DNA of 64,000 nucleotides from Candidatus Shapirobacteria bacterium (GTDB lineage: Bacteria; Patescibacteriota; Microgenomatia; 0-14-0-10-38-17): assembly GCA_018052565.1 (NCBI GenBank), contig JAGPNC010000001.1, positions 45,512 to 109,511 of the forward strand. Reading direction: 5' to 3'. The notes beneath the pieces were generated by a model. The model ran no database searches. It saw nothing but the letters and a program-made list of their open reading frames with translations, and had not been told where the DNA came from. Of this stretch, positions 46 through 57,547 are shown piece after piece (position 1 is the stretch's first letter; each line of letters opens with the position of its first letter). The position numbers were made by a program, and so were the translations under genes.

Positions 46-1752
46 CTAGTCTCTTACCACTCTCACCACTTCTTCCATCGTGCTCACTCCCTCAACCACT
101 CGTAAATAACCATCTTGCAACATGGTGACCATTCCTTCTTCTATGGCCTGCTTTTCTATTTCGCCAGCCGGTGAACGCTCCAAAATCAGTTTAACAATTT
201 TTTCGCTTACTGACAAGACCTCAAAAATACCAATACGACCGTAATAACCAGTATTATTACATTGTTCGCAGCCTTTTCCCCGAAAAAATCTAATTTCTTC
301 TTTTTTCTTCGGTAAGAACTTACCCAAAACCGCTGTCAACTCATCTAAGGTTGTCTTTTCCGGCTGATATTCTTCACGACAATTAGGACAAATCTTCCGA
401 GCGATCCGCTGGCCAACTACCAGGGAAAGAGAAGAGGCAAGTAGAAACGGTTCGGCGCCAAGATCTAAAAGCCGGGGGATTGTCCCCGCCGCCTGATTGG
501 TATGGAGGGTCGAAAAAACCAAATGGCCGGTTAGCGAAGCCTGAATGGCCAACTCCGTTGTTTCCTGATCCCGAATTTCCCCTACCATAATAATATCCGG
601 ATCTTGTCTTAAGAAGGAACGCATCGCCGAAGCAAAGGTTAGGCCCGCCTCGCGGTTTACCTGCACTTGGCTAATTCCTTTAATCTCATATTCCACCGGA
701 TCCTCGATAGTCATGATATTTACCCCGGGATTATTAATCCTGGTAATAACTGAATAAAGAGTGGTCGTTTTTCCTGAACCGGTAGGACCGCAGACAATAA
801 CGATCCCATTTGGCTTTTGAATTGCTTCCTCAACTCTTCTTAAACCTAATCCCCTTAAGCCCAATTCCGGCAGATCGGGAACGCCGCCGCTCGAGCGTAG
901 AAGTCGCATCACAATTTTCTCTCCCCAAATCGTTGGAGCCGAGGAAACCCGTAAGTCTACCTCAGCGTTTTCTACCTTAAACTTGAAGCGCCCGTCCTGG
1001 GGAACTCTTTTCTCATCAATTTTCATCCCCGATAAAATTTTGATCCGGGAAACCAAGGCCTCATGAATGGTTTTAGGAAGCAAAAGCTTCTCATGCAAAA
1101 CACCATCAATACGATAACGAACCCGTGTATTTTCTGGCTGCGGTTCGATATGGACATCGGAAGCCCGTGAGGAAACCGCAAACTCCAAGACGGTAGAAAC
1201 AACCTTGGCAATAGGGGCTTCTCTAATTACCGTCCCTAGTTGGCGAATATCAATCGCCTGCGCCTTGGGAACCGCCAGCTCTTCTTCCATTGCCTGAGAA
1301 ACTTCCGCTACCAGTGTTCCTCCATAACGCTCTTTAATTGCTCCCCCAATCTCTCCTTCTTCTGCTAAATAGGGGACAACCTCACTGCCCGTTTTTTTCT
1401 CCAAAAACTCAATCGCCTCCAAATCTAAGGGGTTAGCCATCGCCACCGCCAGCTCATTCTTCTGACGGTTAAATCGAAGAGGAATAAGACGATATGTCCT
1501 TGCCACCGCCTCAGAAACCAAAGCGACAGCTTCAGGCGAAATCGGCGTCTCGGCCAAGGAAACGAAAGGAACCCCCAACGCTTTTGCCCGCGCCCGCGCC
1601 AGTTCTTTTTTCTCGACTAAACCCCTTTCCTCAACCACCTTTTCTTCGCTCAAGCCCTTCTCGCTTGCTTCAACAACAATCTCCTCTGCTTGACCCTCGC
1701 TAAGCAAGCCCTCGCCGACCAAAATCTTCAGTAAACCATTTTTAATTGCCAT
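46..1752 (-). CDS. pilB: Type IV pilus assembly / type II secretion ATPase (GspE/PilB family)
   Basis: N-terminal T2SS-E N-domain-like segment; Walker A GPTGSGKTTT; Asp box and His box; C-terminal tetracysteine CPNC...CEQC. Confidence 0.85.
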   Translation of the reverse strand: MAIKNGLLKILVGEGLLSEGQAEEIVVEASEKGLSEEKVVEERGLVEKKELARARAKALGVPFVSLAETPISPEAVALVSEAVARTYRLIPLRFNRQKNELAVAMANPLDLEAIEFLEKKTGSEVVPYLAEEGEIGGAIKERYGGTLVAEVSQAMEEELAVPKAQAIDIRQLGTVIREAPIAKVVSTVLEFAVSSRASDVHIEPQPENTRVRYRIDGVLHEKLLLPKTIHEALVSRIKILSGMKIDEKRVPQDGRFKFKVENAEVDLRVSSAPTIWGEKIVMRLLRSSGGVPDLPELGLRGLGLRRVEEAIQKPNGIVIVCGPTGSGKTTTLYSVITRINNPGVNIMTIEDPVEYEIKGISQVQVNREAGLTFASAMRSFLRQDPDIIMVGEIRDQETTELAIQASLTGHLVFSTLHTNQAAGTIPRLLDLGAEPFLLASSLSLVVGQRIARKICPNCREEYQPEKTTLDELTAVLGKFLPKKKEEIRFFRGKGCEQCNNTGYYGRIGIFEVLSVSEKIVKLILERSPAGEIEKQAIEEGMVTMLQDGYLRVVEGVSTMEEVVRVVRD

Positions 1753-3048: not shown

Positions 3049-4965
3049 ATGACCTCTTCTAGTGACTATACAGCCGACAAAATCCAAGTTTTAGAAGGAG
3101 TTGAACCGGTGCGCCTTAGACCGGGGATGTTTATCGGTTCCACCGACACCAAAGGGCTTCACCATCTCTTAACAGAAATCATCGATAACTCGATTGACGA
3201 AGCCCTTTCCGGTAATGCCCAAAATATTTGGGTTTACCTGCAAAAAGACGGCCAGGCCCGGGTAGTTGACGACGGCCGGGGCATTCCGGTAGAAAAGCAT
3301 CCCGGGCTGGGCATCTCTGCCTTGGAAGTAGCCATGACTCGTTTGCACGCCGGGGCTAAATTTCAAAAAGGCACTTATAAAGTTTCCGGCGGCCTACATG
3401 GGGTAGGAGCGAGCGCCGTCAATGCTCTTTCCCAAAAAATGCGCGTTGAAGTTCGTCGCAATGGCAAGCTTTATTATCAAGAATACCGCCGCGGCAAGCC
3501 ATTAGCGCCTGTTAAAGAAGCACCTTTTCCTCAAGACAACCTTCCTAAAACCGGCACCCAAACCATCCTCTTGCCCGATCCGCAAATTTTTGAAGACACC
3601 AATTTCTCCCAAAAAAGAGTTGAGCAATCACTAAGAATCCGGGCCTATCTTATCCCGGGAATTTTTATTCACTTCTTTGACGAAAGAGAGAACTACCAAA
3701 AGCACTTTTATTTTGAGGGTGGCATCCGTTCTCTTTTAAAGAAAACTAACCAGGACCATAAAAAAATCAGTCCCATAATTTATATCAGCAAAAAAGACGA
3801 GAAGCTAAGCTTAGAAGCAGAAATTGCCTTCCAATACATTGACGATATTGAAGAGAATATCCAATCATTTGTCAATGTTATCCCCACTCCTGATGAAGGC
3901 ACCCATGTCGCCGGCTTTCGCTCTGGCCTCACCCGGGTAATTAATGATTACGCTCTTGAAAAAGGTCTTGTTAAAGAAGGAGAAAAATTCAGCGGCGAAG
4001 ACACAAAAGAAGGGCTGACAGCCATTATTTATGTCAAAATGCCCTCAGAAAAAATCCAATTTGAGTCGCAGACAAAAACAAAATTAAATAATAAAGAAGT
4101 GGGGATCTTTATCAACCAAATTGTCCGGGAAGAGCTAACCACTTTCTTGGAGGAACACCCTTCGGAAGGGCGTAATATTGTCGAGAAAATTAAAATTGGC
4201 CTTCAGGCGCGAATGGCCGCCAAGGCGGCTCGCCAGGCAGTATTACGAAAAAGCGCCTTAGGCAGCGGCTCCCTGCCGGGAAAGCTTGCCGATTGTCAGG
4301 TAAAAAACCCCGAGTTGGCCGAGCTTTTTATTGTTGAAGGCGATTCTGCCGGTGGCTCGGCCAAACAAGGACGCGACCGACGATTCCAGGCTATTTTTCC
4401 CCTAAGAGGAAAGCTCTTAAACACCGAGCAGGCGCGTTTAGATAAAATTATTAAGTTTGAAGAACTTAAGAATTTGGTTACCGTTCTTGGGATGGGTATT
4501 GGCGAAACTCAAAGCCCGGAAAAACTTCGTTACCAAAAGGTAATCATTATGACCGATGCCGACGTTGATGGCGAGCATATCGCCACCTTGCTTTTAACTT
4601 TTTTTTATCGCCATCTTCCTTATATCGTCGAAAATGGTTACCTTTATCTTGCCCAGCCCCCTCTTTACAAAATCAGCGCCAGCGGGAAAGACCATTATGT
4701 TTATTCCGACATTGAAAGAGAAGAGCTTTTGAAAAGCCTTGATGGCCAAAAAGTAAGAATCCAACGTTACAAGGGGTTGGGAGAAATGAATCCCGACCAA
4801 CTTTGGCAAACAACGATGGATCCAAATGTCAGAATCCTGAAAAAAATCACCATTGAGGATGCCCAAGAAGCCGACCATACTTTTGATATGCTCTTAGGCA
4901 AGGAAGTCCTGCCTCGCCGGCGTTTTATACAAGCTAATGCCAAACTGGCAGAGCTTGACGTTTAA
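3049..4965 (+). CDS. gyrB: DNA gyrase subunit B
   Basis: GHKL ATPase motifs (LHHLLTEIIDNSIDEA). Toprim EGDSAGGS. PLRGKLLN. Short form without the E. coli insertion. Lies upstream of gyrA. Confidence 0.9.
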   Translation: MTSSSDYTADKIQVLEGVEPVRLRPGMFIGSTDTKGLHHLLTEIIDNSIDEALSGNAQNIWVYLQKDGQARVVDDGRGIPVEKHPGLGISALEVAMTRLHAGAKFQKGTYKVSGGLHGVGASAVNALSQKMRVEVRRNGKLYYQEYRRGKPLAPVKEAPFPQDNLPKTGTQTILLPDPQIFEDTNFSQKRVEQSLRIRAYLIPGIFIHFFDERENYQKHFYFEGGIRSLLKKTNQDHKKISPIIYISKKDEKLSLEAEIAFQYIDDIEENIQSFVNVIPTPDEGTHVAGFRSGLTRVINDYALEKGLVKEGEKFSGEDTKEGLTAIIYVKMPSEKIQFESQTKTKLNNKEVGIFINQIVREELTTFLEEHPSEGRNIVEKIKIGLQARMAAKAARQAVLRKSALGSGSLPGKLADCQVKNPELAELFIVEGDSAGGSAKQGRDRRFQAIFPLRGKLLNTEQARLDKIIKFEELKNLVTVLGMGIGETQSPEKLRYQKVIIMTDADVDGEHIATLLLTFFYRHLPYIVENGYLYLAQPPLYKISASGKDHYVYSDIEREELLKSLDGQKVRIQRYKGLGEMNPDQLWQTTMDPNVRILKKITIEDAQEADHTFDMLLGKEVLPRRRFIQANAKLAELDV

Positions 4966-5009
4966 TTTCTAAAAAAGAACAGATTATTTTTAACTAATTG
5001 ATTTTTAAT

Positions 5010-5066
5010 AAGTAGGGTTTTGGATATTTTTTAGGTCAGTTAGGGCAATTAGAATAATTTCTAACT
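5010..5066. repeat. Partial, right-arm-only copy of the palindromic MITE-like repeat
   Basis: GGGTTTTGGATATTTTTTAGGTCAGTTAGGGCAATTAGAATAATTTCTAAC matches the right arm of copies A, C, D and E. Confidence 0.55.
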
Positions 5067-5161
5067 TGTAATAGACAATAAGCTTGCGCTGCACAAAATA
5101 TATCCCAAACGCTCAGCCCTTCTCTTGTTTAAGCCCTTTACTCATGTTAAACTAACCTTCT

Positions 5162-7792
5162 ATGGTCAAAAAACAATGGGTCTTTTCTTTTAACGCTGTT
5201 CCCAAAATTGACAAAAATTTGTTGGGCGGCAAGGGAGCCGGGTTAGCGGAGATGACTAAAATTGGCTTGCCCGTACCTCCCGGTTTTATTATTACCACAG
5301 ACGCCTGTAAAGCTTATCAAAAGAATAAAAAATTACCACCAGACCTTTGGCCACAGATTATAAGAGAACTTAAAAAATTAGAAGAAAAAACGGGAAAGAG
5401 ATTTAATGATGCTAAAAACCCTCTATTGGTCTCGGTTCGTTCCGGCGCTCCCGTTTCCATGCCCGGGATGATGGACACCGTTTTAAATTTAGGTCTAAAC
5501 GATGAAACCGCCAAAGCATTAGCTAAAAGAACAAAAAATTCCCGCTTTGCCGCTGATTCCTATCGCCGCTTTATCCAAATGTTTGCCAACATCGTTAAAA
5601 GTGTACCACTGAAAAAGTTTGAGGATGTTTTAGAACAAGAGAGAGAACGCCATGGCTTCAAAAACGATACCGAATTCAGCGCCCAGGACTTAGAAAAAAT
5701 CATCCGACGTTATCAGCAAATTTATCAAGAAGAAACGGGAGAAAAATTTCCTCAAGATCCCTTGGTTCAACTCCAAGAAGCAATTAAGGCTGTTTTCAAT
5801 TCTTGGGAAAATAAAAGAGCCATCGATTACCGCAATTTTAATAAAATCCCCCATCATTTGGGTACCGCAGTTAATGTTCAGGCAATGGTTTTTGGCAACA
5901 TGGGAGAAAAATCGGCCACGGGAGTTGCTTTTACCCGCAATCCTGCTATCGGCAAGAAAAAACTTTATGGCGAATTTCTAATCAATGCCCAAGGCGAAGA
6001 CGTTGTCGCCGGTATTCGTACTCCCCGGCCAATTAAGGAGCTGGCCAAGGCAATGCCTAAGGCTTATGAAATCTTGCAAAAAATTGCCCAAACTCTGGAA
6101 AAACATTTCCGCGACATGCAAGACATCGAATTTACTATTGAAGAGGGGAAATTTTATATTCTCCAAACCCGTAGCGGTAAACGAACTCCTGAAGCAGCAG
6201 TAAAAATTGCTTACGATATGGTTTTGGAAAAGCTTATCAGTAAAGAAGAGGCGATCATGCGTCTTGATCCTGATCAGATTAATCAATTGCTTCACCGCCA
6301 CATTGATCACGACGCCCGGCTGCAAGTTATTGCTAAAGGGCTAGCTGCCTCTCCCGGTGGCGCCAGCGGCGAGGTAGTCTTAGACGCTGATAAAGCCGAA
6401 AGCGAGGGCCAGCTTGGCAATCAGGTGATTCTTGTCCGCCCGGAAACTTCTCCTGATGATGTCCATGGTGTTATTTGGGCTCAAGGAGTTTTAACCAGCC
6501 GGGGCGGGACAACTTCTCATGCGGCCGTGGTGGCCCGGGGTTTAGGCCGACCCTGTGTTTGCGGGGCAGAGGAAATAAAAATTGATTTGGAAAAGAGCCA
6601 GTTTACTACTCGCGGCCAGACAGTTAAGGAAGGAGAAGTAATTACTCTTAACGGATCAACAGGCGAGGTCATCTTGGGTGCCGTGCCGATGGTTGAGCCA
6701 AAACTAAGCCGGGAGCTAAAGACCGTTCTTTCTTGGGCAGACGAGATAGCAAAATTAAAAGTCTATACCAACGCCGATTATCCGAGGGATGCCAAAACAG
6801 CCCGTGATTTTGGCGCCAAAGGCATTGGCCTTTGCCGAACGGAACATATGTTTATGGAGCAAGAACGACTACCACATGTCCAGAAAATGATTTTGGCGCC
6901 AAATGCTCAAAAGCGAGAAGAGCCGCTTGAAAAAATAGGTCAATTCCAAAAAGAAGATTTCGTGGGCTTATTCCGCATTATGGATGGCTCGCCGGTAATC
7001 ATTCGCCTAATTGATCCTCCTTTGCACGAATTTCTGCCAAAGGAAAAAGAAATTAAAGAAAGCTTGGAGAAGGCCAAAAGTAAAAAAGAAAAAGAGCATT
7101 GGGAGGCAATTTTAACCGCTCGCAATAATTTGCACGAGGATAACCCCATGCTGGGCTTACGCGGTTGCCGACTGGGAATTTTAATGCCCGAAATTATTAG
7201 AACACAAACCCGCGCCATCCTCGAAGCAGCCCTAAAGGTTAGAAAAGAAGGCAAAAGAGTAAAACCACAAATTATGGTGCCGCTGGTAGCCTTCAAAGAA
7301 GAGCTTGCCCTTGTTAAAAAAGAGATCATCGACGAGGCAGAAAAGGTTTTTGCTAAAGAAGGAGAGAGGCTGGAATTCAAAATTGGCACTATGATTGAAT
7401 TGCCACGCGCCGCCCTTAGAGCAGGGGAAATTGCCGAAGAAGCGGAATTTTTTTCTTTTGGCACTAATGACTTAACTCAAACCACTATTGGTATTTCCCG
7501 CGATGATGCGGAGGGAAAATTCTTAGCTTCTTATCAAAAATTAGGCATTATTAAAACTGATCCTTTCCAAACATTGGACCAAGATGGGGTAGGGGAATTA
7601 GTCGAAATAGGGACAAGAAGAGGCAGAAAAATAAACCCCGATCTTTCGGTAGGCATTTGCGGCGAGCACGGCGGCGATCCCGAAAGCATTAAGTTTTGCC
7701 ACCAAACTGGCCTAAATTATGTTTCCTGCTCTCCTTACCGTGTCCCCGCTGCCCGTCTTGTCGCCGCCCAAGCAGCAATTGGCGGGAAATGA
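5162..7792 (+). CDS. ppdK: Pyruvate, phosphate dikinase
   Basis: N-terminal ATP-grasp (GGKGAGLAEM). Central phospho-His domain (GGTTSHAAVVARGLGRPCV). C-terminal PEP-utilising TIM barrel (CGEHGGDP). 876 aa. Confidence 0.9.
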   Translation: MVKKQWVFSFNAVPKIDKNLLGGKGAGLAEMTKIGLPVPPGFIITTDACKAYQKNKKLPPDLWPQIIRELKKLEEKTGKRFNDAKNPLLVSVRSGAPVSMPGMMDTVLNLGLNDETAKALAKRTKNSRFAADSYRRFIQMFANIVKSVPLKKFEDVLEQERERHGFKNDTEFSAQDLEKIIRRYQQIYQEETGEKFPQDPLVQLQEAIKAVFNSWENKRAIDYRNFNKIPHHLGTAVNVQAMVFGNMGEKSATGVAFTRNPAIGKKKLYGEFLINAQGEDVVAGIRTPRPIKELAKAMPKAYEILQKIAQTLEKHFRDMQDIEFTIEEGKFYILQTRSGKRTPEAAVKIAYDMVLEKLISKEEAIMRLDPDQINQLLHRHIDHDARLQVIAKGLAASPGGASGEVVLDADKAESEGQLGNQVILVRPETSPDDVHGVIWAQGVLTSRGGTTSHAAVVARGLGRPCVCGAEEIKIDLEKSQFTTRGQTVKEGEVITLNGSTGEVILGAVPMVEPKLSRELKTVLSWADEIAKLKVYTNADYPRDAKTARDFGAKGIGLCRTEHMFMEQERLPHVQKMILAPNAQKREEPLEKIGQFQKEDFVGLFRIMDGSPVIIRLIDPPLHEFLPKEKEIKESLEKAKSKKEKEHWEAILTARNNLHEDNPMLGLRGCRLGILMPEIIRTQTRAILEAALKVRKEGKRVKPQIMVPLVAFKEELALVKKEIIDEAEKVFAKEGERLEFKIGTMIELPRAALRAGEIAEEAEFFSFGTNDLTQTTIGISRDDAEGKFLASYQKLGIIKTDPFQTLDQDGVGELVEIGTRRGRKINPDLSVGICGEHGGDPESIKFCHQTGLNYVSCSPYRVPAARLVAAQAAIGGK

Positions 7793-17111: not shown

Positions 17112-17214
17112 CCAAAAACTAATTTATTTTATGGCTAAAAGCAAATCATCGCTCAATTATTATAAAATTCCAAATAACCCGCCTGCCCCACACTGTATAA
17201 GGCGGGGCCGGCTG

Positions 17215-17412
17215 GCCCTGTACCAAAATGGTACGGGGCTGGCGGATTGAATTTTAACATTTAACATATAGTCCTGTCTACTGTGGGCAGGTTTGCGATT
17301 TGCGTTTTGAATCCATTTATAATTTTGACTTTTGGCTTTTTCCGCCAGAGGCGCAGGCCAGAGGCCTGTCAGCCTTGGGCAGAGACCCGCCTTGGGCGGG
17401 AACTTTTAAATT
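17215..17412. repeat. Cluster of GC-rich hairpin modules within A/T repeats (hypothetical-recR spacer)
   Basis: GGCCGGCTGGCCCTGTACC-AAAATG-GTACGGGGCTGGCGGATTGAATTTTA, then CCGCCAGAGGCG, GGCCAGAGGCC, CCCGCCTTGGGCGGG. The last module is identical to the one at 53745-53792. Confidence 0.6.
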
Positions 17413-37052: not shown

Positions 37053-37129
37053 GGGCCCGTAGCTCAGTTGGCTAGAGCGTCCGCATGGCATGCGGAAGGT
37101 CAGGGGTTCAACTCCCCTCGGGTCCACCA
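37053..37129 (+). tRNA. tRNA-Ala (GGC)
   Basis: Cloverleaf: acceptor GGGCCCG/CGGGTCC with the G3:U70 Ala identity pair. Anticodon loop ATGGCAT. T-arm GGGGTTCAACTCCCC. Encoded CCA. Confidence 0.9.
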
Positions 37130-37317
37130 CATAAAGAAACAAAAGGTATTGCCAAATAGCCTTCCAAACTAGCTGATATCCTCTATAAAAAATGATAAAG
37201 CTAAGGATAGGCAGTAATTACCGACCTCCAATTAACATAATAACTTCGGGGGGCAAACAGGATCTTCCTTCCGTGCTGTTGTTGACGATTTTTATTAAAA
37301 AATTGTAGAATAAGTTT

Positions 37318-38376
37318 ATGAACGATTATAGCGACTACAAAGAAAGAAAATATTTATCTTCTACAGAAGCAGCAAGATATTTAGATATCTCTGTAGGAAT
37401 GTTACATAATTTGGTCAGGGTAAATAAGATTAAATGTTTTATCGCCGGAAGTGGGCAAAAACGCTTTAATCTAAAGAATTTAAAAAAATATGAAACGAGT
37501 AAACCAAATAAAAAAGTAAAAGAGAAAAAAAAAGAAATATTAATAGAAAATATAGTCAACATTAATAATACTACTCAGAAAATCTTTATTAAAAATGCGA
37601 TGGATATGAGTGAACTAAAAGATGACTCTGTCCATTTAATGATTACTTCGCCTCCTTATTTTGACGCAAAAATGTACACCAAAAAACCTATTAAAAATGA
37701 TTTAGGCAATATACATAATCTTGATGAATGGTTTAAAAAAATTGGCATTGTTTGGAAAGAAGTTTTTAGAGTTTTACAACCGGGGAGAAAAGCATTTATA
37801 AATATTATGAATTTGCCTATAAGAGATAATGGCGGTTTTAAATCTCTAAATTTAGTCGGTAGGACAATAGATACAATGGAAAAAATAGGTTTTATTTTCA
37901 AACGAGATATTGTGTGGCACAAAACAAACGGGGTGAGAGCAAATTTCGGGACCTATCCATACCCTGGCGGTATTCTAATAAATAATATGCATGAGTTTGT
38001 TCTGGAATTTAATAAACCAAACAAGAAAGGATTTAATAAATATGGACATTTGACAAAAGAGCAAAAAGAAGCATCCAGGCTCGATAAAGAATTTTGGCTT
38101 TCTATAAAAAACACTGATGTCTGGTTAATGAAGCCGCGAAACAGTGGAGATAGCCGAACCCATGTTGCTCCGTTTCCTTACGAGTTACCATATAGAATCA
38201 TCAAGGCGTTTACTTTTATCGGAGAAGTGGTCTTAGATCCGTTTCTTGGCAGTGGCACCTCGCTAGAAGTAGCCGCAGATTTAAAAAGAAATGGCATAGG
38301 ATATGAAATTGTCCCTGAAATTGCTGAAACTGCAATTAAAAATTTGAATCAACATCAGAATAAACTATTTACTTAA
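37318..38376 (+). CDS. DNA methyltransferase (beta-class N4-C/N6-A, SPPY motif) with N-terminal excisionase-type HTH
   Basis: Motif IV TSPPYFDAK is followed much later by motif I DPFLGSGTSLEVA, the beta-class order. N-terminal residues 14-60 resemble an HTH_17/MerR-like DNA-binding domain. About 30% GC, so AT-rich. Confidence 0.8.
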   Translation: MNDYSDYKERKYLSSTEAARYLDISVGMLHNLVRVNKIKCFIAGSGQKRFNLKNLKKYETSKPNKKVKEKKKEILIENIVNINNTTQKIFIKNAMDMSELKDDSVHLMITSPPYFDAKMYTKKPIKNDLGNIHNLDEWFKKIGIVWKEVFRVLQPGRKAFINIMNLPIRDNGGFKSLNLVGRTIDTMEKIGFIFKRDIVWHKTNGVRANFGTYPYPGGILINNMHEFVLEFNKPNKKGFNKYGHLTKEQKEASRLDKEFWLSIKNTDVWLMKPRNSGDSRTHVAPFPYELPYRIIKAFTFIGEVVLDPFLGSGTSLEVAADLKRNGIGYEIVPEIAETAIKNLNQHQNKLFT

Positions 38377-38390
38377 TTAATAATAAAAAT

Positions 38391-39515
38391 ATGGTAATCG
38401 ATGCAAAAACAATATATGCCCAATCGAGTGATATTAAATCTAGAACATATCTAGAGTATCGCAAAGATATGAAACAAAAAGCTATTGCTGAGTTAGAAGT
38501 TTTACCGTGGCTTAAGAAAAAAATTCGCCAAAAGGATAAAAAAGCCGTTGTTGAAAAATTCGGAGGCGATAAGTTTATTTGGTTTTTAAGAAAAGGGGGA
38601 ATTACGAGAGAACCAGATTTTGTGGCAAAATATTCAAATAAGGAAACTAAATACGTTGAATTTCAATACGCAAAAAAAGAATTAAGCGCTTATGATTTTA
38701 AGATTTCTAAAATTGCTCCAAAAAACAGAACACTAAACAAGAGGGCCCCTAAAGACGATACAGAAATTTTATATGTCGTTAAGCCAACCTATGAGTTCGC
38801 AATTTTAAGTCCTGACTGGATAATTAAGAATTCAAAACAAGCTATTGCTTCTGCTTGGGGTAATGCTCCGGTATTCAGGGTACCAAAAGAAAAATTTAAA
38901 AAAGTTTTACAGAAAGATAAAGAATTGAAAGCTGTTTGTGACTTTATAGATAAAAAAATTTCGATCTTGGATTTCCAACATAAAACCATTGAAATGGAAG
39001 AGAACAAGCTTTCTTATCTTTTGCAACAAGTTATAGATGAAGAGAAAATCCTAAAAATAATTCCAAAAACCATAGATGGATTTTTTAAAGTTTGCTTTAT
39101 GCTCGACCACATCGAAAAGATTCCAACTAATGCAAATTTGTGGCTAGTATATATTTTATCCTTTTTAGACCAAAGTTTAAATTCTTATGAACTCTTTCGG
39201 TTAATTTATAGCTTAGATTTTCTTTATCAAAAAGTTGAATTAAAAACAAATGAACTTAGCAGATTAGTAAGGGGATTAAAAGAAATTAATAAGCAAGTTG
39301 AACGATTTTCAAATCCCGATGGTTCTTTTCGGTCAGATAAAACCATCGCTCCTCTGGAAGATACAAGATATTCACTTTTCATAATAAATATCCTTGAAGA
39401 TTTGACCCAAGATGTTCTGTATTACTATGGGAACAATATCAACCTAAGACCTATCACTAGGATATACCAAACCGTTCCGCAAATAAATAAAACTTTTCAA
39501 TTCGTCATGCAATAA
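38391..39515 (+). CDS. Uncharacterised protein, candidate restriction endonuclease partner of the upstream methyltransferase
   Basis: Starts 14 bp after the MTase stop on the same strand, with the same AT-rich composition. Possible PD-x9-ETK (PD-(D/E)xK-like) segment REPDFVAKYSNKETKYVEF. No other recognisable domain. Confidence 0.35.
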   Translation: MVIDAKTIYAQSSDIKSRTYLEYRKDMKQKAIAELEVLPWLKKKIRQKDKKAVVEKFGGDKFIWFLRKGGITREPDFVAKYSNKETKYVEFQYAKKELSAYDFKISKIAPKNRTLNKRAPKDDTEILYVVKPTYEFAILSPDWIIKNSKQAIASAWGNAPVFRVPKEKFKKVLQKDKELKAVCDFIDKKISILDFQHKTIEMEENKLSYLLQQVIDEEKILKIIPKTIDGFFKVCFMLDHIEKIPTNANLWLVYILSFLDQSLNSYELFRLIYSLDFLYQKVELKTNELSRLVRGLKEINKQVERFSNPDGSFRSDKTIAPLEDTRYSLFIINILEDLTQDVLYYYGNNINLRPITRIYQTVPQINKTFQFVMQ

Positions 39516-52391: not shown

Positions 52392-53657
52392 ATGACCCGT
52401 TCTCAAAAAAGAGTCGCCATTAGTCTTTTAACTTTTTTCTTTGTTGTCAGCGGCACAATTTTAATCAGTCTTTTGGCCCGTGGCTATCGTCCTGACTTCC
52501 AAGAAAAAGGGCTTAAGCCTACCGGCTTGCTCGTCGTTAATTCTCTCCCCAAAGGAGCCCAAGTTTTTATTAACGGCCAATTAACCACCGCCACTAATCA
52601 AACTATTAACTTACCGCCCGGAGAATATAGGGTAACTATCAAAAAACCAGGCTATTCTTCTTGGGAAAAAAACATTATTTTGGAAAAGGAAGTGGTCACC
52701 AATATCGACGCTTATCTTTTCCCCCTTGCGCCCGACCTTAAAGCTCTCACCTTTTCTCCCACCTTAAATCCTCTTCTTTCACCAGACGGAACGAAGCTAA
52801 TTTACTTTTCTCCCGGAGGGGAAGAAGATCCCCAAAACCAAAACGCTACTCAAACGGCCCCTCTTCTCCCTCAAGAAAAAGGGGGTGTTTGGCTTATTGA
52901 CTTGACAGAAAAACCTCTTGGCCGCTCTCTCCAGCCGCGGGTTCTAGTCAAAACGCCTAAAGACTTACCCATTGAGCAAATTGAGACTGAATGGTCACCA
53001 GACTCAAGGCAAATTCTTCTTACTATCAACTCAAAAGACGAAAAGAGTAAGCAATATTTTCTTCTCGAAATTAATCAAGTTTACGACTTCACCCTCTCTC
53101 CTCTTATCAGCACTCCAACTGCCCAAGTGATAACTACTCTTGATTTGTGGGAAAAACAAAAAAATCAACAAAATAAAGCTCTTCTAAAAAGATTGCCCGA
53201 AGAAATACAAAAATTTCTTGAAGAAAAAGTTGCCAGCTTTTCCTTCTCTCCCGACGAGAGCAAAGTGCTTTATCAAGCAGGAAGTGATTTCCAAATTAAA
53301 GAAAAACTCTTATCCCAAGAAATTATTGGCGCTTCAACCCAAAAAGAAGAAAGGGCAGTCAAAAAAAATCAATGGTATGTTTATGATCTCAAAGAAGATA
53401 AAAACTTTCTTGTCCTTGATAATAAAGAAGCTACCAAAATTAGCTGGTTTCCCACTTCTCTCCATCTTCTTTTAATAAAAGAGGGCAAAGTAGAAATCGA
53501 AGATTACGATGGCAAGATGCGGACTACCGTTTATGCCGGCCCTTTTGATAATGGATTTGTTTTCCCCCTCCCTTCCGCTAAAGGGTTGCTGATCCTTACT
53601 TCCTTAAATAACAATACCGATTCTGCCCCCAACCTTTATTCTATTAATTTTTATTAA
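52392..53657 (+). CDS. PEGA domain membrane-anchored protein with beta-propeller-like C-terminal repeats
   Basis: N-terminal TM. PEGA motif LPKGAQVFINGQ...LPPGEYRVTIKKPGY. Repeated SPDG/SPDS segments. Confidence 0.55.
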   Translation: MTRSQKRVAISLLTFFFVVSGTILISLLARGYRPDFQEKGLKPTGLLVVNSLPKGAQVFINGQLTTATNQTINLPPGEYRVTIKKPGYSSWEKNIILEKEVVTNIDAYLFPLAPDLKALTFSPTLNPLLSPDGTKLIYFSPGGEEDPQNQNATQTAPLLPQEKGGVWLIDLTEKPLGRSLQPRVLVKTPKDLPIEQIETEWSPDSRQILLTINSKDEKSKQYFLLEINQVYDFTLSPLISTPTAQVITTLDLWEKQKNQQNKALLKRLPEEIQKFLEEKVASFSFSPDESKVLYQAGSDFQIKEKLLSQEIIGASTQKEERAVKKNQWYVYDLKEDKNFLVLDNKEATKISWFPTSLHLLLIKEGKVEIEDYDGKMRTTVYAGPFDNGFVFPLPSAKGLLILTSLNNNTDSAPNLYSINFY

Positions 53658-53744
53658 TTTTTATTGACCGTTCTTTTTCTCCTACTAACCAAGGATTAAT
53701 AAAAATAAGGCGGGGCCAGAAGCAGACCCTCTTGAGAGTGGGAA

Positions 53745-53792
53745 TTTTTAACTTTTTCCGCCAGAGGCGGACCCGCCTTGGGCGGGAAATTT
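53745..53792. repeat. GC-rich hairpin module (CCGCCAGAGGCGG + CCCGCCTTGGGCGGG) flanked by A/T tracts
   Basis: Same module occurs at 17340-17410. Related cores at 61391-61405 and 20538-20560. Confidence 0.6.
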
Positions 53793-53804
53793 TAACTTTT
53801 GACT

Positions 53805-53875
53805 TTTTTAAAGTGCCTCTACCAGGAATTGAACCTGGATCAACCGCTTAGGAGGCGATTGCTCTTTCCGTTGAG
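53805..53875 (-). tRNA. tRNA-Arg (CCT), atypical (6-nt T-loop)
   Basis: Reverse complement folds as acceptor GCCTCTA/TAGAGGC, D-arm, and anticodon stem ATCGC/GCGGT with loop CTCCTAA. The T-arm CCAGG-TTCATT-CCTGG has only 6 loop nt, so it may be a pseudogene or a 1-nt indel. Confidence 0.55.
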
Positions 53876-53945
53876 CTATAGAGGCTAACTTTATTTGAAT
53901 TTTATCATCTTTTAGGCTAAAATAGAAAACAGGAGGCTAAAAATG

Positions 53946-54018
53946 CGGAGCGTGGCCTAATGGCTAAGGCGCCAGCTTCGGGTGCTGGAGATTCCGGGTT
54001 CAAATCCCGGCGCTCCGA
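53946..54018 (+). tRNA. tRNA-Pro (CGG)
   Basis: Acceptor CGGAGCG/CGCTCCG. Anticodon stem CCAGC/GCTGG, loop TTCGGGT. T-arm CCGGGTTCAAATCCCGG. No encoded CCA. Confidence 0.85.
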
Positions 54019-54343
54019 CTGAAAGAGAAAAAAAGCTCTTTGAGTCCGAGGCACTCCATGCACCACCGCTCGCACGAAGCGTCGCAAAGCCCCTTTTATA
54101 TTCTACCGAGAGCTGCCAGATATAAAAGAAGGAAGAAAAACACAAAAATTTTAAAGATCTTTTTATAATAATTGATGGCATACCCGTTGCAACCAGTTAG
54201 GAATCTCTTCCAACTAACGAGTGCGCCATCAAAAAAAGAGATTCGTAAAAACTGGTTGCTAAATAAATATACCAAAGTCTGAAATAACTATTCAAGCCTT
54301 ATTCGCAACATGCCTTTATCCAATTCAAAATTTTAGATATAAT

Positions 54344-55477
54344 GTGAACAATATGATTTATTCAAAACCATCGCTAACAGAAATTAGGACACACCAACTA
54401 AAAGCGCAATCAGTTGACCTTCATACTTACACAAGGGAGGCAAGCCTAAGAAGAATTCCCGATACTCGAATCATAAAAGAAGGAGATAATGAATTCATTG
54501 AGTTTTCATTTAATGGTTTTAAAGTTATAACTGACACTTCCGAAGAAAGTGTCGAGTTTTCCGAAGAAGGAGACCCCCAAAATAAATATTTTCGTATTCG
54601 AAAATTTTTAGTGAATTTTCAAGGAAAAGATGTTGATCTTCTTGATAATGAAGTTGCTAAACTCTGTGATCACTTTATGTCTTTCCGAGTAAGTAGAATT
54701 GGCTCACATTTTAATAGACAGGTAGTGGTTGTTAACAATGAAGGTCAAGAAATTAAAAGACTTAAGAGCAATATCGTAATTTATGTTCCAACAAACGAAG
54801 AGAGGACAGACTACGATGCAGAAGAAATGCTATATCACTGGGTACATGAGTTCGGTCACGCTCTCGATCTGATTGACGTAGTAAGAAGATTCCGCAGGGT
54901 AAGTACTAAAGGAGAAAAGTATGAACGAGTAAGCAACGAAGAATTAAATGATGTCAAAGCAGAAAGAGACGCCCATGCAATTGGATTAAAAATCCTTAGG
55001 TGGATTCGCAGATTATATGGACCACAACCAAGTATTTCCGAAGAACGATATATCAATAACGTGGTCGAACCGGCATTACACTCCCGCCAGTTAGTTAGAA
55101 TGGACTTTCGTTCTGCTTATTCTAATCAAGACCGAGCATTATTCAGAGAAGAAGAAATAGAAATAAGAAAGATGGGTATAGCCGAAGAGGTAGATAGAGA
55201 AAGATTCCAAATAAAATTTAGGCGAGATAAAAATATTTCTTTACTATCAGAAAGACTTGGAGAAAGAGCACAAGAAATGTATGATTCTTTAGTCCAGGCA
55301 TGGGTAGATGAAAATATCGATAAGATGGTAAAATTAAATCAAATTTTTGCTAAAAGCGGCTTAGAAGAACATAAAACAAGAGAAGAATTGATTATGGACT
55401 TAGAGCTTGATTACCACTCGGCAATTTTAAGAAAACACGGAATACCATGGGAACAATTTTCAAGTTTATTAAAATAG
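54344..55477 (+). CDS. Uncharacterised HEXXH zinc-metallopeptidase-like protein (zincin motif HEFGH)
   Basis: YHWVHEFGHALD is the only recognisable motif. AT-rich (about 33% GC) with atypical codon usage. Lies immediately after tRNA-Pro. Confidence 0.5.
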   Translation: MNNMIYSKPSLTEIRTHQLKAQSVDLHTYTREASLRRIPDTRIIKEGDNEFIEFSFNGFKVITDTSEESVEFSEEGDPQNKYFRIRKFLVNFQGKDVDLLDNEVAKLCDHFMSFRVSRIGSHFNRQVVVVNNEGQEIKRLKSNIVIYVPTNEERTDYDAEEMLYHWVHEFGHALDLIDVVRRFRRVSTKGEKYERVSNEELNDVKAERDAHAIGLKILRWIRRLYGPQPSISEERYINNVVEPALHSRQLVRMDFRSAYSNQDRALFREEEIEIRKMGIAEEVDRERFQIKFRRDKNISLLSERLGERAQEMYDSLVQAWVDENIDKMVKLNQIFAKSGLEEHKTREELIMDLELDYHSAILRKHGIPWEQFSSLLK

Positions 55478-55500
55478 TATTTGAATATTGATAATATTGA

Positions 55501-55519
55501 GCGATTGTTCTGCAATCGC
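55501..55519 (+). terminator. Stem-loop GCGATTG-TTCT-GCAATCGC 24 nt after the stop of the HEXXH gene
   Basis: Perfect 7-bp stem. No downstream T-tract, so it is hairpin-only. Confidence 0.3.
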
Positions 55520-55749
55520 AAAATCGCGCGCGCAAAAAATAACGGAGGCGCGGCGGCGGCGCCCGACGCGCCGGAGTTGCGAGCGGAGCGAAGTGAGCCA
55601 ACAACCTTGAAATTTGGTTCTAAATTTTTCGTAAATCTCAAACCGCAACAAATTACCCCCCTTACTTTTCACGTGATGAAACACCTTGCTGGCTTTCGTG
55701 AGAGCCACTTCATATTTCCTCTAGAAGACAGCTTAGAAGGGCAAACAGG

Positions 55750-56298
55750 TTAATAGGAAAAAATCTCTTCCTCTTTAAACCAAAGTTGTTTTTCTAATTT
55801 TGCCTCCTCCTTGCTTCCCGAAGCATGAACTAAATTATGAACAGATCTTTTTTCTCGATTTGACAGGGAAGGCGAATCTAAACCAAAATCCCCCCTGATT
55901 GTCCCCGGTGGCGCCGTTAAGGGATAAGTAGGACCAATAATTTTACGGACGACCTCTATCGCCGCTGGCCCCTCCCAAACCATTGCTAAAATAGGTCCTT
56001 CGGTTAGATACTCTACATTCCATTTTTGAACTAATTCTCCTATCTCACGGTTAGTCAATTTGGAAAATTCCTCTCCCTTGTCTAGGCCTTCCTGCTGATA
56101 AAATTCCTTCACTTTTCGGCCAACATTCTCAAACCACTCATCATTATAACCATAATGTTTTGTCGCCAGCTCGGGTTTCACTACCACCAATTTTGCCGCC
56201 ACCATTTTCAATCCTGCTTTCTCAAAACGAGAAATAATTTCGCCAACTAAGCCGCGCTTCACCCCATCAGGCTTAATTAAAACTAAAGTTTGTTCCAT
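55750..56298 (-). CDS. ndk: Nucleoside diphosphate kinase (with C-terminal extension)
   Basis: LVLIKPDGVKRGLVGEIISRFEKAGLKMVA. NLVHASGS active-site His region. Confidence 0.85.
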   Translation of the reverse strand: MEQTLVLIKPDGVKRGLVGEIISRFEKAGLKMVAAKLVVVKPELATKHYGYNDEWFENVGRKVKEFYQQEGLDKGEEFSKLTNREIGELVQKWNVEYLTEGPILAMVWEGPAAIEVVRKIIGPTYPLTAPPGTIRGDFGLDSPSLSNREKRSVHNLVHASGSKEEAKLEKQLWFKEEEIFSY

Positions 56299-56332: not shown

Positions 56333-57547
56333 TTAGCCAACGATTACCTCTCCTACATTGTTAGGAGTAAAAATTTTCTCCCCTGCTTCTATTACTTCAG
56401 CTAATTTTACCTTTTTTATTTTCTTAACAACACCCTCCGGTTCGACTATTTTTTCCTCCAAAAGAATTTGTTTACCATAAAATAAGGCTTGAGCAAGAGA
56501 ATCTTCCAAAGAAAGCGCTAACTGGCCTTGAAAATAGTTCTTTGCCTTTGCTAACTCCGCCGCCCTAATATTATTAATATCTTTAAGCTCTTTTTTAATT
56601 TTTCCCAACCCTTCTTCTACCTTCTCCCTATTTAAACCCGCGCTTATTAGAAAAACTCCCGTATCTGCTAAAGCTTCCACTTCTGACTTTACCGAATAAG
56701 CTAAACCATCCTCCTCTCTAATCCGCTGAAAAAGACGCGACGACATTCCTTGGCCTAAGATAATATTTAAAAGTGTTTGCGGAAAACGTTGGCGGGAAAA
56801 ATAGGAAAAAGCTCGCCCCCCTAATGACAAATGAGCTTGATCTGTTTTCCTTTTTACCATTTTATTTGCTACTTTTTTAATAGGCAAAACGGGAGCAAAC
56901 TCTTTTGGCTCTCCTGCTTTCATACCGGCAAAGTAATTTTCTACCATTTTCTTAGCTTCATTTTTTAGGAAATTACCGGCTATCACCAAAACGGTTTTAT
57001 CAGCGGTATAAAAGCTCTGCTGAAAATTTAAAAAATCTTCTCGCTTAATCTTTTCTATTGTTCGAGGGGAACCAACACCTGTTTTCCCCAAGGGATGACG
57101 AGGATAAAGCAATTTCATTATCTCCATTTCTGCCTTATATTGAGGCACGTCTTCGTACATATGAAGCTCTTCTAAAATAATCTTTCTCTCAACGGCAAGG
57201 CTTTCTTCCGCTAAAAGAGGCTCCGTCAAAAGTTGTGAAACAATTTCCAAAGATTGTTGAAAGTAAATCGTGGCGCTTTTAACATAATAAAAAGTATATT
57301 CTTGAGCCGTAGCGCCGTTATATTCTGCTCCCATCCTATCAACTGTCAAGGCAAGTTCTTTTTTAGTGGGATATTTTTTAGTCCCCCGAAAAACAAGATG
57401 TTCATAAAAATGAGCCAATCCCTCTGTTTCCGTCCCATCATAACGAGAGCCGGTTTTTACCAATCCTACCACGGAAACACTCGCCAGCTCAGGAAGAGGC
57501 AACAGGACCAGACGCAGTTGATTTTTAAGCTGGTAAATGTTAATCAT
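56333..57547 (-). CDS. M16-family (insulinase/pitrilysin-like) zinc peptidase
   Basis: Inverted zinc motif HxxEH: GLAHFYEHLVFRGT. Confidence 0.8.
   Translation of the reverse strand: MINIYQLKNQLRLVLLPLPELASVSVVGLVKTGSRYDGTETEGLAHFYEHLVFRGTKKYPTKKELALTVDRMGAEYNGATAQEYTFYYVKSATIYFQQSLEIVSQLLTEPLLAEESLAVERKIILEELHMYEDVPQYKAEMEIMKLLYPRHPLGKTGVGSPRTIEKIKREDFLNFQQSFYTADKTVLVIAGNFLKNEAKKMVENYFAGMKAGEPKEFAPVLPIKKVANKMVKRKTDQAHLSLGGRAFSYFSRQRFPQTLLNIILGQGMSSRLFQRIREEDGLAYSVKSEVEALADTGVFLISAGLNREKVEEGLGKIKKELKDINNIRAAELAKAKNYFQGQLALSLEDSLAQALFYGKQILLEEKIVEPEGVVKKIKKVKLAEVIEAGEKIFTPNNVGEVIVG

Follow-up and report, generated by a model that had tools for sequence, protein, structure and literature searches.

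The stretch analyzed here, a 64,000-nt segment of a Candidatus Shapirobacteria genome (hereafter the window, to whose positions all unqualified coordinates refer), contains a region abutting a tRNA-Pro(CGG) gene in which the gene for a zincin-like protein with an HExxH motif is embedded in structured non-coding DNA, and it is the nature of this cassette, and of the element family to which it belongs, that is addressed below (Table 1). The tRNA-Pro gene forms a divergent pair with a tRNA-Arg(CCT) gene, which is context only, and a spacer of 324-333 nt (54020-54343/54352) separates it from the zincin open reading frame (ORF). This spacer harbors three interleaved inverted repeats, TTGATGGCATACCCGTT/AACGAGTGCGCCATCAA (54172-88 and 54216-32), GCAACCAGTT/AACTGGTTGC (54189-98 and 54250-59) and TTAGGAATCTCTT/AAGAGATTCGTAA (54197-209 and 54236-48), and its predicted fold is more stable than those of shuffled sequences on both the plus (z = -4.6) and the minus strand (z = -3.8). 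The ORF spans 54344-55477 when read from a GTG codon; the ATG at 54353 is, on the other hand, the start in its homologues and in the NCBI gene model. A preliminary description of the locus had listed the divergent tRNAs, the interleaved repeats, the HExxH ORF, a perfect hairpin after the gene and a GC-rich block, all of which were located with small corrections. The AT-rich island that it described, with a gene of about 33% GC, is a milder affair: the gene does lie below the window average (35.5% against 41.1% GC) and is the second-lowest ORF of the window, which amounts to a modest dip. Likewise, the 80-bp block is present (55523-55602), at 70% GC and not at the 75% initially given.

Table 1. 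Features of the zincin cassette and its tRNA-proximal boundary (window positions).
Feature	Position	Strand	Remarks
tRNA-Arg(CCT)	53813-53885	-	ARAGORN; Rfam tRNA, 68.7 bits
tRNA-Pro(CGG)	53946-54019	+	ARAGORN and Rfam; cassette lies against its 3' side
Large serine recombinase (LSR) 3'-tail remnant	54020-54131	- (antisense)	Ends at ...AAAAGAAG
Cassette 5' boundary motif GAAGAAAAACACAAAAATTTTAAAGATC	54132-54159	+	Consensus GAAAAAACGCAAAAATTTTAAAGAAC; ahead of cargo and LSR genes at dozens of loci
Structured element S (118 nt)	54161-54278	- (probable functional strand)	Covariance model, 88 bits; sole match in the window
S helix P1	54174-54187 / 54217-54230		14 bp
S helix Y1	54188-54197 / 54251-54260		10 bp
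S helix Y2	54200-54209 / 54236-44		
Sigma-70-like promoter, TTGAAT, 18 nt, TATATT with TG	54266-54295	-	Promoter scan; points into S
Zincin-like cargo gene	54353-55477	+	374 aa from ATG; 377 aa from GTG at 54344
Short hairpin GCGATTG-TTCTG-CAATCGC	55501-55519	+	Perfect 7-bp stem; opens the 3' module
Conserved 21-mer AAATCGCGCGCGCAAAAAATA	55521-55541	+	Equals the KIARAKN-coding stretch of the LSR gene
Variable GC-rich insert	55542-55602	unstranded	Minus-strand hairpin and T-run, terminator-like (promoter/terminator scan)
3' module tail ..CTTGAAATTTGGTTCTAAATTTTTCGTAAATCTCAAAC	55603-55643	+	Fits consensus ..TTGAAATTCGGTTCTAACTTTTTCGTAAATCTCGAC of loci L103, L125, L128 and L131

Homologues of the zincin gene sit downstream of, and in the same orientation as, different tRNA genes in different genomes. 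The nearest upstream tRNA is tRNA-Pro-CGG in the window (325 nt), tRNA-Gln-TTG in L001/L008 (315 nt), tRNA-Glu-CTC in L003 (about 108 nt or less), tRNA-Gln-CTG in L012 (580 nt) and tRNA-Lys-CTT in L004 (1155 nt, with an MNT/HepT pair in between), while L009 has no tRNA within 1042 nt. Thus, a tRNA gene lies no more than 600 nt from the zincin gene in four of six loci, which, with about 6 tRNAs per 64 kb, has a binomial chance of the order of 1e-5 and, on this rough estimate, places the association far beyond chance. The window, L001 and L004 share DNA of 82-89% identity between 54125/54136 and 55541, in non-coding segments as well, and the flanks outside these limits are unrelated; a further zincin cassette, that of L005, is 75% identical to the window at the DNA level. 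The gene is preceded by a TATAAT hexamer (54338-54343, plus strand) that ends 9 nt before the ATG and is conserved in L001 and L004, and a GATAAT stands 7 nt before the ATG in L003 and L015. TATAAT might be the promoter of a leaderless zincin mRNA. In L004, the pair between tRNA-Lys(CTT) and the cassette (818-1439) is a nucleotidyltransferase/HEPN toxin-antitoxin system, and the tRNA is preceded by a small GIY-YIG ORF, with a similar GIY-YIG-like ORF following tRNA-Pro in L122. L015 is syntenic with L003 except for 3540-5924, where a 793-aa TPR-repeat gene separates tRNA-Glu(CTC) from the distant zincin homologue; this extra ORF had been considered as a recombinase and turned out to encode the TPR protein. 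The insertion therefore indicates that the tRNA-adjacent spot is variable in the lineage of the distant homologues too.

The 3' end of the shared region provides the link to a wider family. The conserved 21-mer occurs once in the window and in at least 120 metagenome contigs, with no occurrence in viral contigs, and its copies fall into two types. In type A (54 copies among the matches listed), the 21-mer lies within the 3' coding end of a gene whose product, some 445-520 aa long, carries the domains Resolvase, Recombinase and Zn_ribbon_recom, that is, an LSR. In type B (67 distinct copies among the matches listed), as in the window, it follows the stop codon of an unrelated, non-LSR gene. Within the same list, 48 of the 67 distinct non-LSR copies have a short hairpin ahead of the 21-mer, its sequence varying and its stem being kept; a 40-mer of at least 70% GC follows within 140 nt in 42 of 53 evaluable copies; and 32 copies have the tail motif, at a median distance of 96 nt beyond the 21-mer. 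The GC-rich block begins with ACGGAGGCGCGGCGG at many loci, and L001 and L131 represent versions without the insert. Since both recur in type B copies, the hairpin and the GC-rich block are standard parts of a 3' module. Moreover, homology links the 3' module of the cargo cassettes to the 3' end of the LSR gene; it covers the hairpin, the 21-mer, a second hairpin and the sequence GTTCGAAC-TTTTT.

The 5' boundary is equally generic. Its motif, which can also be written as GAAAAACGCAAAAATTTTAAAGAAC, begins the LSR gene side as well as the cargo cassettes, and in the latter it is followed by a structured element that we term S; the similarity among zincin cassettes sets in at 54125-54136. From the 5' motif to the 21-mer, cassettes measure 0.85-1.9 kb, and the cargo ORF stops 20-45 nt short of the 21-mer. 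Among the 31 cargo proteins collected, 24 unrelated clusters can be distinguished. Judged by eye, they appear to include a 2-hydroxyacid dehydrogenase, a PP2C phosphatase, a glycosyltransferase, an aldo-keto reductase and an alpha/beta hydrolase, together with MFS and EamA transporters, a JAB protein and various membrane proteins. In pairs of loci, 5' and 3' modules that are 78-92% identical enclose unrelated cargo of differing length. Hence, the leader, hairpin and GC block that had been attributed to the zincin gene are modules shared by at least 24 unrelated cargo families, and the proposal that the gene is mobile-element cargo at a tRNA-linked spot gains support from these common flanks. 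The usual full layout consists of a tRNA gene (plus), an LSR gene (minus), the 5' motif and S (plus), the cargo gene (plus) and the 3' module (plus), as exemplified by L126, L078, L083, L091, L050, L079 and L084. The window shares its boundaries (5' motif, S, hairpin and 21-mer, GC insert and tail) with LSR-bearing loci such as L126, L078, L083 and L091. Among 26 S-bearing cargo cassettes, a divergent LSR gene lies 100-700 nt away in 10 and a co-oriented tRNA 219-519 nt upstream in 4, most of the others being located at contig ends.

The LSR gene typically abuts a tRNA gene. In 36 of the 48 type A copies that could be evaluated among the matches listed, an antisense tRNA gene lies 131-183 nt beyond the 21-mer, with a mode at 157-159 nt; the LSR ORF runs into the 3' end of the tRNA, and tRNAs of 17 species are abutted in this way. 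The LSR family itself is large, with at least 7,899 proteins at E <=1e-30 that are annotated only as "recombinase family protein" and that include, where named, members from Gottesman-, Woese-, Davies- and Curtissbacteria, Parcubacteria and the "Patescibacteria group". Some individual loci show further peculiarities. In L126, the last 100 nt or so of the LSR gene, on the tRNA side, are repeated in inverted orientation upstream of the gene (2690-2790 and 4275-4380), and a partial 3' module without the 21-mer stands ahead of the inverted copy. L073 (2725-5392) carries a 2.5-kb island, with a frameshifted recombinase gene and one cassette, between two inverted and 100% identical tRNA-Glu(CTC) genes. 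In L067 (6954-7028), ARAGORN predicts a tRNA whose TTA anticodon would decode the UAA stop codon, between tRNA-Gln(TTG) and tRNA-Lys(CTT) and beside a cassette.

A trace of the same recombinase gene persists in the window. The segment between tRNA-Pro and the 5' motif is about 83% identical over 112 nt (z about 30) to the post-tRNA segment of the LSR-bearing loci L106 and L038, and its antisense frame reads the LSR C-terminal tail (..FFYIWQLSVEYKRGFATLRASGG..; compare NFFLTDRRLIPVYKKGFAELCA in L062). The similarity stops exactly at AAAAGAAG, where the window goes on with the cassette 5' motif and intact elements continue with TTCGAGCCGAC..., the complement of the conserved GTCGGCTCGAAC/TTCTTTTT. 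The Arg(CCT)/Pro(CGG) tRNA pair of the window recurs in L062, where tRNA-Pro is followed by an intact LSR gene. A comparable difference is seen in L097, which is devoid of the 1.56-kb LSR body that L126 and six other loci present at the equivalent junction (a comparison made below the 88% stringency used for filled and empty sites). With the remnant as the only trace of an LSR in the window, and with intact genes in sister loci such as L062, the window copy is therefore best described as a non-autonomous derivative. As for the att-like repeats sought at the island boundaries, neither a tRNA-derived att repeat nor an integrase is present, and what the boundary retains is this recombinase gene remnant.

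The interleaved repeats of the spacer correspond to S, which was characterized on an alignment (A5) of 26 cassettes. Cells of helices P1 and Y1 are paired in 89.6% of cases, versus 70.9% in shuffled alignments and 24-40% in slid controls, and 126 cells show changes on both sides, versus 47 in shuffles (0 of 500 shuffles as high). Each sequence is likewise complementary at Y2, over a run averaging 7.9 nt as opposed to 3.9 nt in shuffles. The covariance model derived from the alignment finds S in 12 loci outside the seed, once in the window and not near the distant zincin homologues, and the Rfam 15 library yields nothing but the two tRNAs and noise over 53500-56000 (cmscan, E <=1) and only tRNAs in L126, L040, L103 and L027 at gathering thresholds. 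The elements of S are ordered P1a-Y-P1b-A6-Y', with a junction of 1-2 nt, so that the two long helices cannot both form fully, and we take them to represent alternative states; in a full H-type pseudoknot, the 1-2 nt loop would have to cross a stem of about 20 bp, and this arrangement was discarded for that reason. The earlier conjecture that the repeats could form alternative structures or be a recombination site is thus supported insofar as both helices covary and this DNA is shared with recombinase-associated loci.

The strand on which S operates can be approached through its mismatches. On the cargo strand, non-Watson-Crick cells comprise 46 A.C versus 9 G.U, with 24 of the 46 A.C arising from one conserved position. 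As A.C on the cargo strand equals G.U on the other, and as a promoter-like site lies on the minus strand, S is read as an RNA transcribed away from the cargo. In particular, 21 of 29 cassettes have a TATATT on the minus strand at a constant distance ahead of S, in most cases with TTG 17-18 nt upstream of it. S is thus most likely an RNA from the strand opposite the cargo, which would act as a leader or as a small RNA with two conformations, although it might alternatively work as a folded single strand of DNA. The mutually exclusive helices suggest a switch controlling the recombinase, or a small RNA. S is not, in any case, the leader of the zincin gene, as had been assumed when the upstream structure was first noted: a riboswitch-like leader of the zincin mRNA, to which compensatory changes between the window and L001 had pointed, was rejected on finding that S also accompanies cargo of other kinds and that L005 carries it on the opposite strand.

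The cargo protein itself belongs to a very small family. The motif YHWVHEFGHALD is present in the window protein, with HEFGH encoded at 54845-54859 and a candidate third ligand, E207, at 54962-54964. A search of 5.8 billion clusters returned 7 relatives, of which all named ones are from Patescibacteria or Shapirobacteria, and an exhaustive profile search of 1.8 billion representatives gave 9 matches at E <=1e-10, bringing the family to about 15 representatives, so that the term orphan, as originally applied, is a fair one. Two further candidates, P0016 and P0017, are PKD-repeat proteins that match only around HExxH and were set aside as spurious. A scan of a genome collection recovered only the KatS3mg092 locus, and a protein-pattern scan of the metagenome contigs, for which alignment A2 is too divergent, found no relatives. 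Thirteen sequences, down to 23% identity, share the invariant residues F114, W166, H168, E169, H172, E207, R208, A210, G226, F255, S260, R264 and R268. E207 follows H172 by 35 residues within VKxERxAHAIG, and HExxH with a later Glu is the gluzincin pattern. An AlphaFold2 (AF2) model built from the 13-sequence alignment (pLDDT 82.8, pTM 0.72) comprises an N-terminal beta domain, two motif-bearing helices and a long helical C-terminal domain, and it places HExxH in helix 159-175 and E207 in the consecutive helix 203-225. On the conservation pattern and the model, E207 is a candidate zinc ligand on the helix after HExxH, and the protein is probably a zinc metallohydrolase with HExxH and a downstream Glu, presumably active as a catalyst.

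Known families do not claim this protein. In Pfam, the only hit is GSKIP_dom (E 0.066) and none of the 13 members matches a peptidase family; NCBIfam returns no families, sequence and profile searches of the PDB give no peptidase match, and a Foldseek search of the model against the PDB returns nothing. A 32-residue match to PDB entry 6iai (DUF1076, NleG/StoD family; E 0.016) is too weak to use; the region concerned, residues 248-279 (about 55085-55180), contains the invariant DFxxAYSxxDRAlFRxE. The protein is hence best considered a new small family within a known superfamily, with no close relative in sequence or fold, and the initial impression that it is not of the M48, M50, M78 or SprT type holds insofar as no sequence test places it there. 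It resembles the small gluzincins (SprT/Wss1/Spartan, the ArdC C-domain, ImmA/IrrE M78 and M48) in having, according to the model, the HExxH helix and a Glu on the next helix. It differs from them in that no zincin family profile of Pfam or NCBIfam matches it, in its additional beta domain at the N terminus (about residues 40-150) and the long helical domain at the C terminus, which bears the invariant DFxxAYSxxDRAxFR, and in having neither a helix-turn-helix (HTH) partner nor a recognized DNA-binding domain. In agreement with the preliminary description, the window ORF list contains no HTH or other partner gene adjoining the zincin gene, and no small HTH ORF of the kind expected for an ImmA/ImmR-type repressor adjoins it in the window, L001, L003 or L004.

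Taken together, these results make it probable that the zincin gene is the cargo of a small modular element common among the Candidate Phyla Radiation (CPR)/Patescibacteria, of which 54020-55643 would be a copy lacking the recombinase gene. A complete copy would consist of an LSR gene placed tail-to-tail with a tRNA gene and of one adjacent cargo gene framed by the generic modules, and the window would have lost the LSR gene while keeping about 110 nt of its 3' end. The LSR would integrate next to tRNA genes, and cassettes may be gained, lost or exchanged by site-specific recombination at conserved cores. The S transcript, in turn, would start at the conserved TTGnnn-17-TATATT and run towards the LSR gene in complete elements. 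Two candidate cores can be proposed: GAAC/TTCTTTTT (also written GTCGGCTCGAAC/TTCTTTTTAA), with complement AAAAGAAG/, and a direct repeat, CGCAAAAA(A)T, shared by the 5' motif and the 21-mer, at which the similarity among zincin cassettes breaks. Other mobile systems were discarded: IS200/IS605-like elements, bridge-RNA or omega-RNA systems and a relaxase with oriT, because no HUH, TnpB or IS110 protein is present and the enzyme is a serine recombinase. L029, considered as a 4.69-kb circle, proved to be a partial duplication, with 1563 of 2771 overlapping positions identical.

Several observations, however, weigh against this interpretation. No LSR is detected in the window by tblastn, and S is conserved also in cassettes without an LSR. 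In L005, the S match (113-260, minus strand, 80.5 bits) is inverted with respect to the zincin gene, with a weaker overlapping match on the plus strand. Serine recombinases are not known to depend on folded sites or RNAs. The crossover could lie at either of the two candidate cores. The analysis turned up neither an excision product nor an empty site or a target duplication, and the fetched loci contain no filled/empty pair at >=88% identity with flanks of >=200 nt. The distant zincin homologues of L003/L015 and L012 are tRNA-proximal and yet lack the cassette modules, and the zincin assignment relies on a short motif and a weak fold similarity, with no sequence match in Pfam, NCBIfam or the PDB.

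In an alternative explanation, the modules are only shared expression signals (a divergent promoter region with its leader, and a terminator working in both directions) at a hot spot downstream of tRNA genes, the cargo is swapped by homologous recombination between them after DNA uptake, and the LSR integrates only its own gene. Modules that are 78-92% identical would suffice for homologous recombination, the GC-rich insert resembles a minus-strand terminator, a promoter-like site is conserved and excision junctions are missing from our set. Against it stand the homology of the cassette 3' module to the LSR gene's own 3' end, the presence of the same 5' motif at the start of the LSR gene, and the exact break of the window remnant at the conserved AAAAGAAG core, and we deem this explanation unlikely, if worth retaining. 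The idea put forward at the outset, that the locus is a stand-alone toxin or anti-phage effector island with the repeats as its own leader or attachment site, draws on the rare and patchy occurrence of the HExxH protein, on its tRNA proximity in five of six informative contexts and on the MNT/HepT pair adjacent to it in L004. It is nonetheless very improbable in view of the cargo in sister cassettes, mostly ordinary enzymes and membrane proteins: the same leader and 3' DNA accompany other genes, among them those for a dehydrogenase, PP2C, a glycosyltransferase and a transporter, the strand on which S operates is probably the opposite one, no partner gene is found, and PADLOC and PHROGs give nothing significant for the 13 members (best single-member E values of 0.0021 and 0.039, respectively). 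Finally, a classical tRNA island of a since-lost tyrosine integrase, which the position directly 3' of a tRNA and the GC content below that of the surroundings might evoke, can be practically dismissed, since no integrase is present, the tRNA-side remnant comes from a serine recombinase, and matches of tRNA-Pro to 55478-55800 and of tRNA-Gln to the L001 flank are no better than in shuffles (41 of 300 as high, the other two comparisons being worse).

Within the proposed recombinase-less, cargo-carrying element, a bolder extension can be entertained, albeit with considerable doubt: an integron-like gene capture system built on an LSR, in place of a tyrosine recombinase, in the CPR, in which single-gene cassettes, that of the LSR gene among them, would be bounded by the same cores and inserted or exchanged beside many different tRNA genes, S, as a structured RNA or a folded DNA strand, would control or join the reaction, and the zincin gene would be one of hundreds of accessory genes circulated among these ultra-small symbionts.

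Beyond the cassette, the zincin gene is preceded by a 421-aa ORF (52392-53657, plus strand) and followed on the minus strand by ORFs of 182 aa (55750-56298) and 404 aa (56333-57547); judged by eye, these neighboring ORFs seem to resemble a nucleoside-diphosphate kinase and an M16-type peptidase. The window also contains a second low-GC stretch (37053-39515) directly after tRNA-Ala(GGC), with ORFs at 37318-38376 and 38391-39515 of 31-32% GC, in which none of the cassette motifs (5' motif, S or 21-mer) was found. A GC-rich intergenic repeat, TTCCGCCAGAGGCG..GACCCGCCTTGGGCGGGAA, is present together with AAGGCGGGGCC at both 53707-53800 and 17176-17403, and looks like a genome-wide intergenic repeat family, and GGGAATTTTTAACTTTT occurs twice, 44 nt apart, just outside tRNA-Arg.

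The CPR/Patescibacteria have tiny genomes, in which accessory genes are thought to shape host dependence and gene movement is poorly known. If the cassettes are indeed mobile, they would represent a simple route of gene exchange across the CPR, a source of serine integrases that apparently use tRNA-adjacent sites, and a new RNA or DNA structure associated with a serine recombinase. It also follows, for annotation purposes, that hairpins and GC-rich blocks beside such genes should not be read as gene-specific regulators. A full-text literature search, including work on horizontal transfer in Patescibacteria, retrieved no description of tRNA-linked serine-recombinase cassettes in the CPR, an absence that is no proof of novelty.

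Comparison with known systems reveals partial similarities. The staphylococcal/enterococcal cassette chromosome (SCC), mobilized by Ccr LSRs, likewise combines a Resolvase/Recombinase/Zn-ribbon LSR with insertion at the 3' end of a conserved housekeeping gene and with variable cargo, and its recombinase-less "pseudo" elements are still flanked by conserved boundary repeats. Its target, however, is rlmH, whereas the elements reported here lie on the 3' side of tRNAs of 17 species, are single-gene units of 1-2 kb in which the 3' coding end of the LSR gene constitutes one boundary, carry a covarying structured element and reside in CPR bacteria. Integron cassettes (IntI, attC) share single-ORF and very diverse cargo, a boundary whose covarying stems are better conserved than its sequence, and a recombinase that is either near or absent. 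On the other hand, IntI is a tyrosine recombinase and the enzyme found here is a serine recombinase; the window region and the sister loci inspected contain neither IntI nor any other tyrosine recombinase, there is neither attI nor long arrays (one or two cassettes per locus), and the structured element, which may be an RNA, lies 5' of the cargo with a one-strand mismatch pattern and a promoter. In a similar vein, Tn4451 and Tn5397 (TnpX/TndX) are small single-LSR elements with ends that resemble one another and the target, but they carry resistance genes in Clostridia and use a GA crossover with no tRNA preference, whereas the present family yielded no excised circle and has two candidate crossover cores. 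Islander-type tRNA islands also lie directly 3' of a tRNA and have cargo of atypical composition, and they differ from our elements in possessing a tyrosine integrase, hence another recombinase family, and a direct repeat of a tRNA fragment. The element family described here therefore shares features with SCC, Tn4451/Tn5397, integrons and tRNA islands, and departs from each of them in a defining feature.

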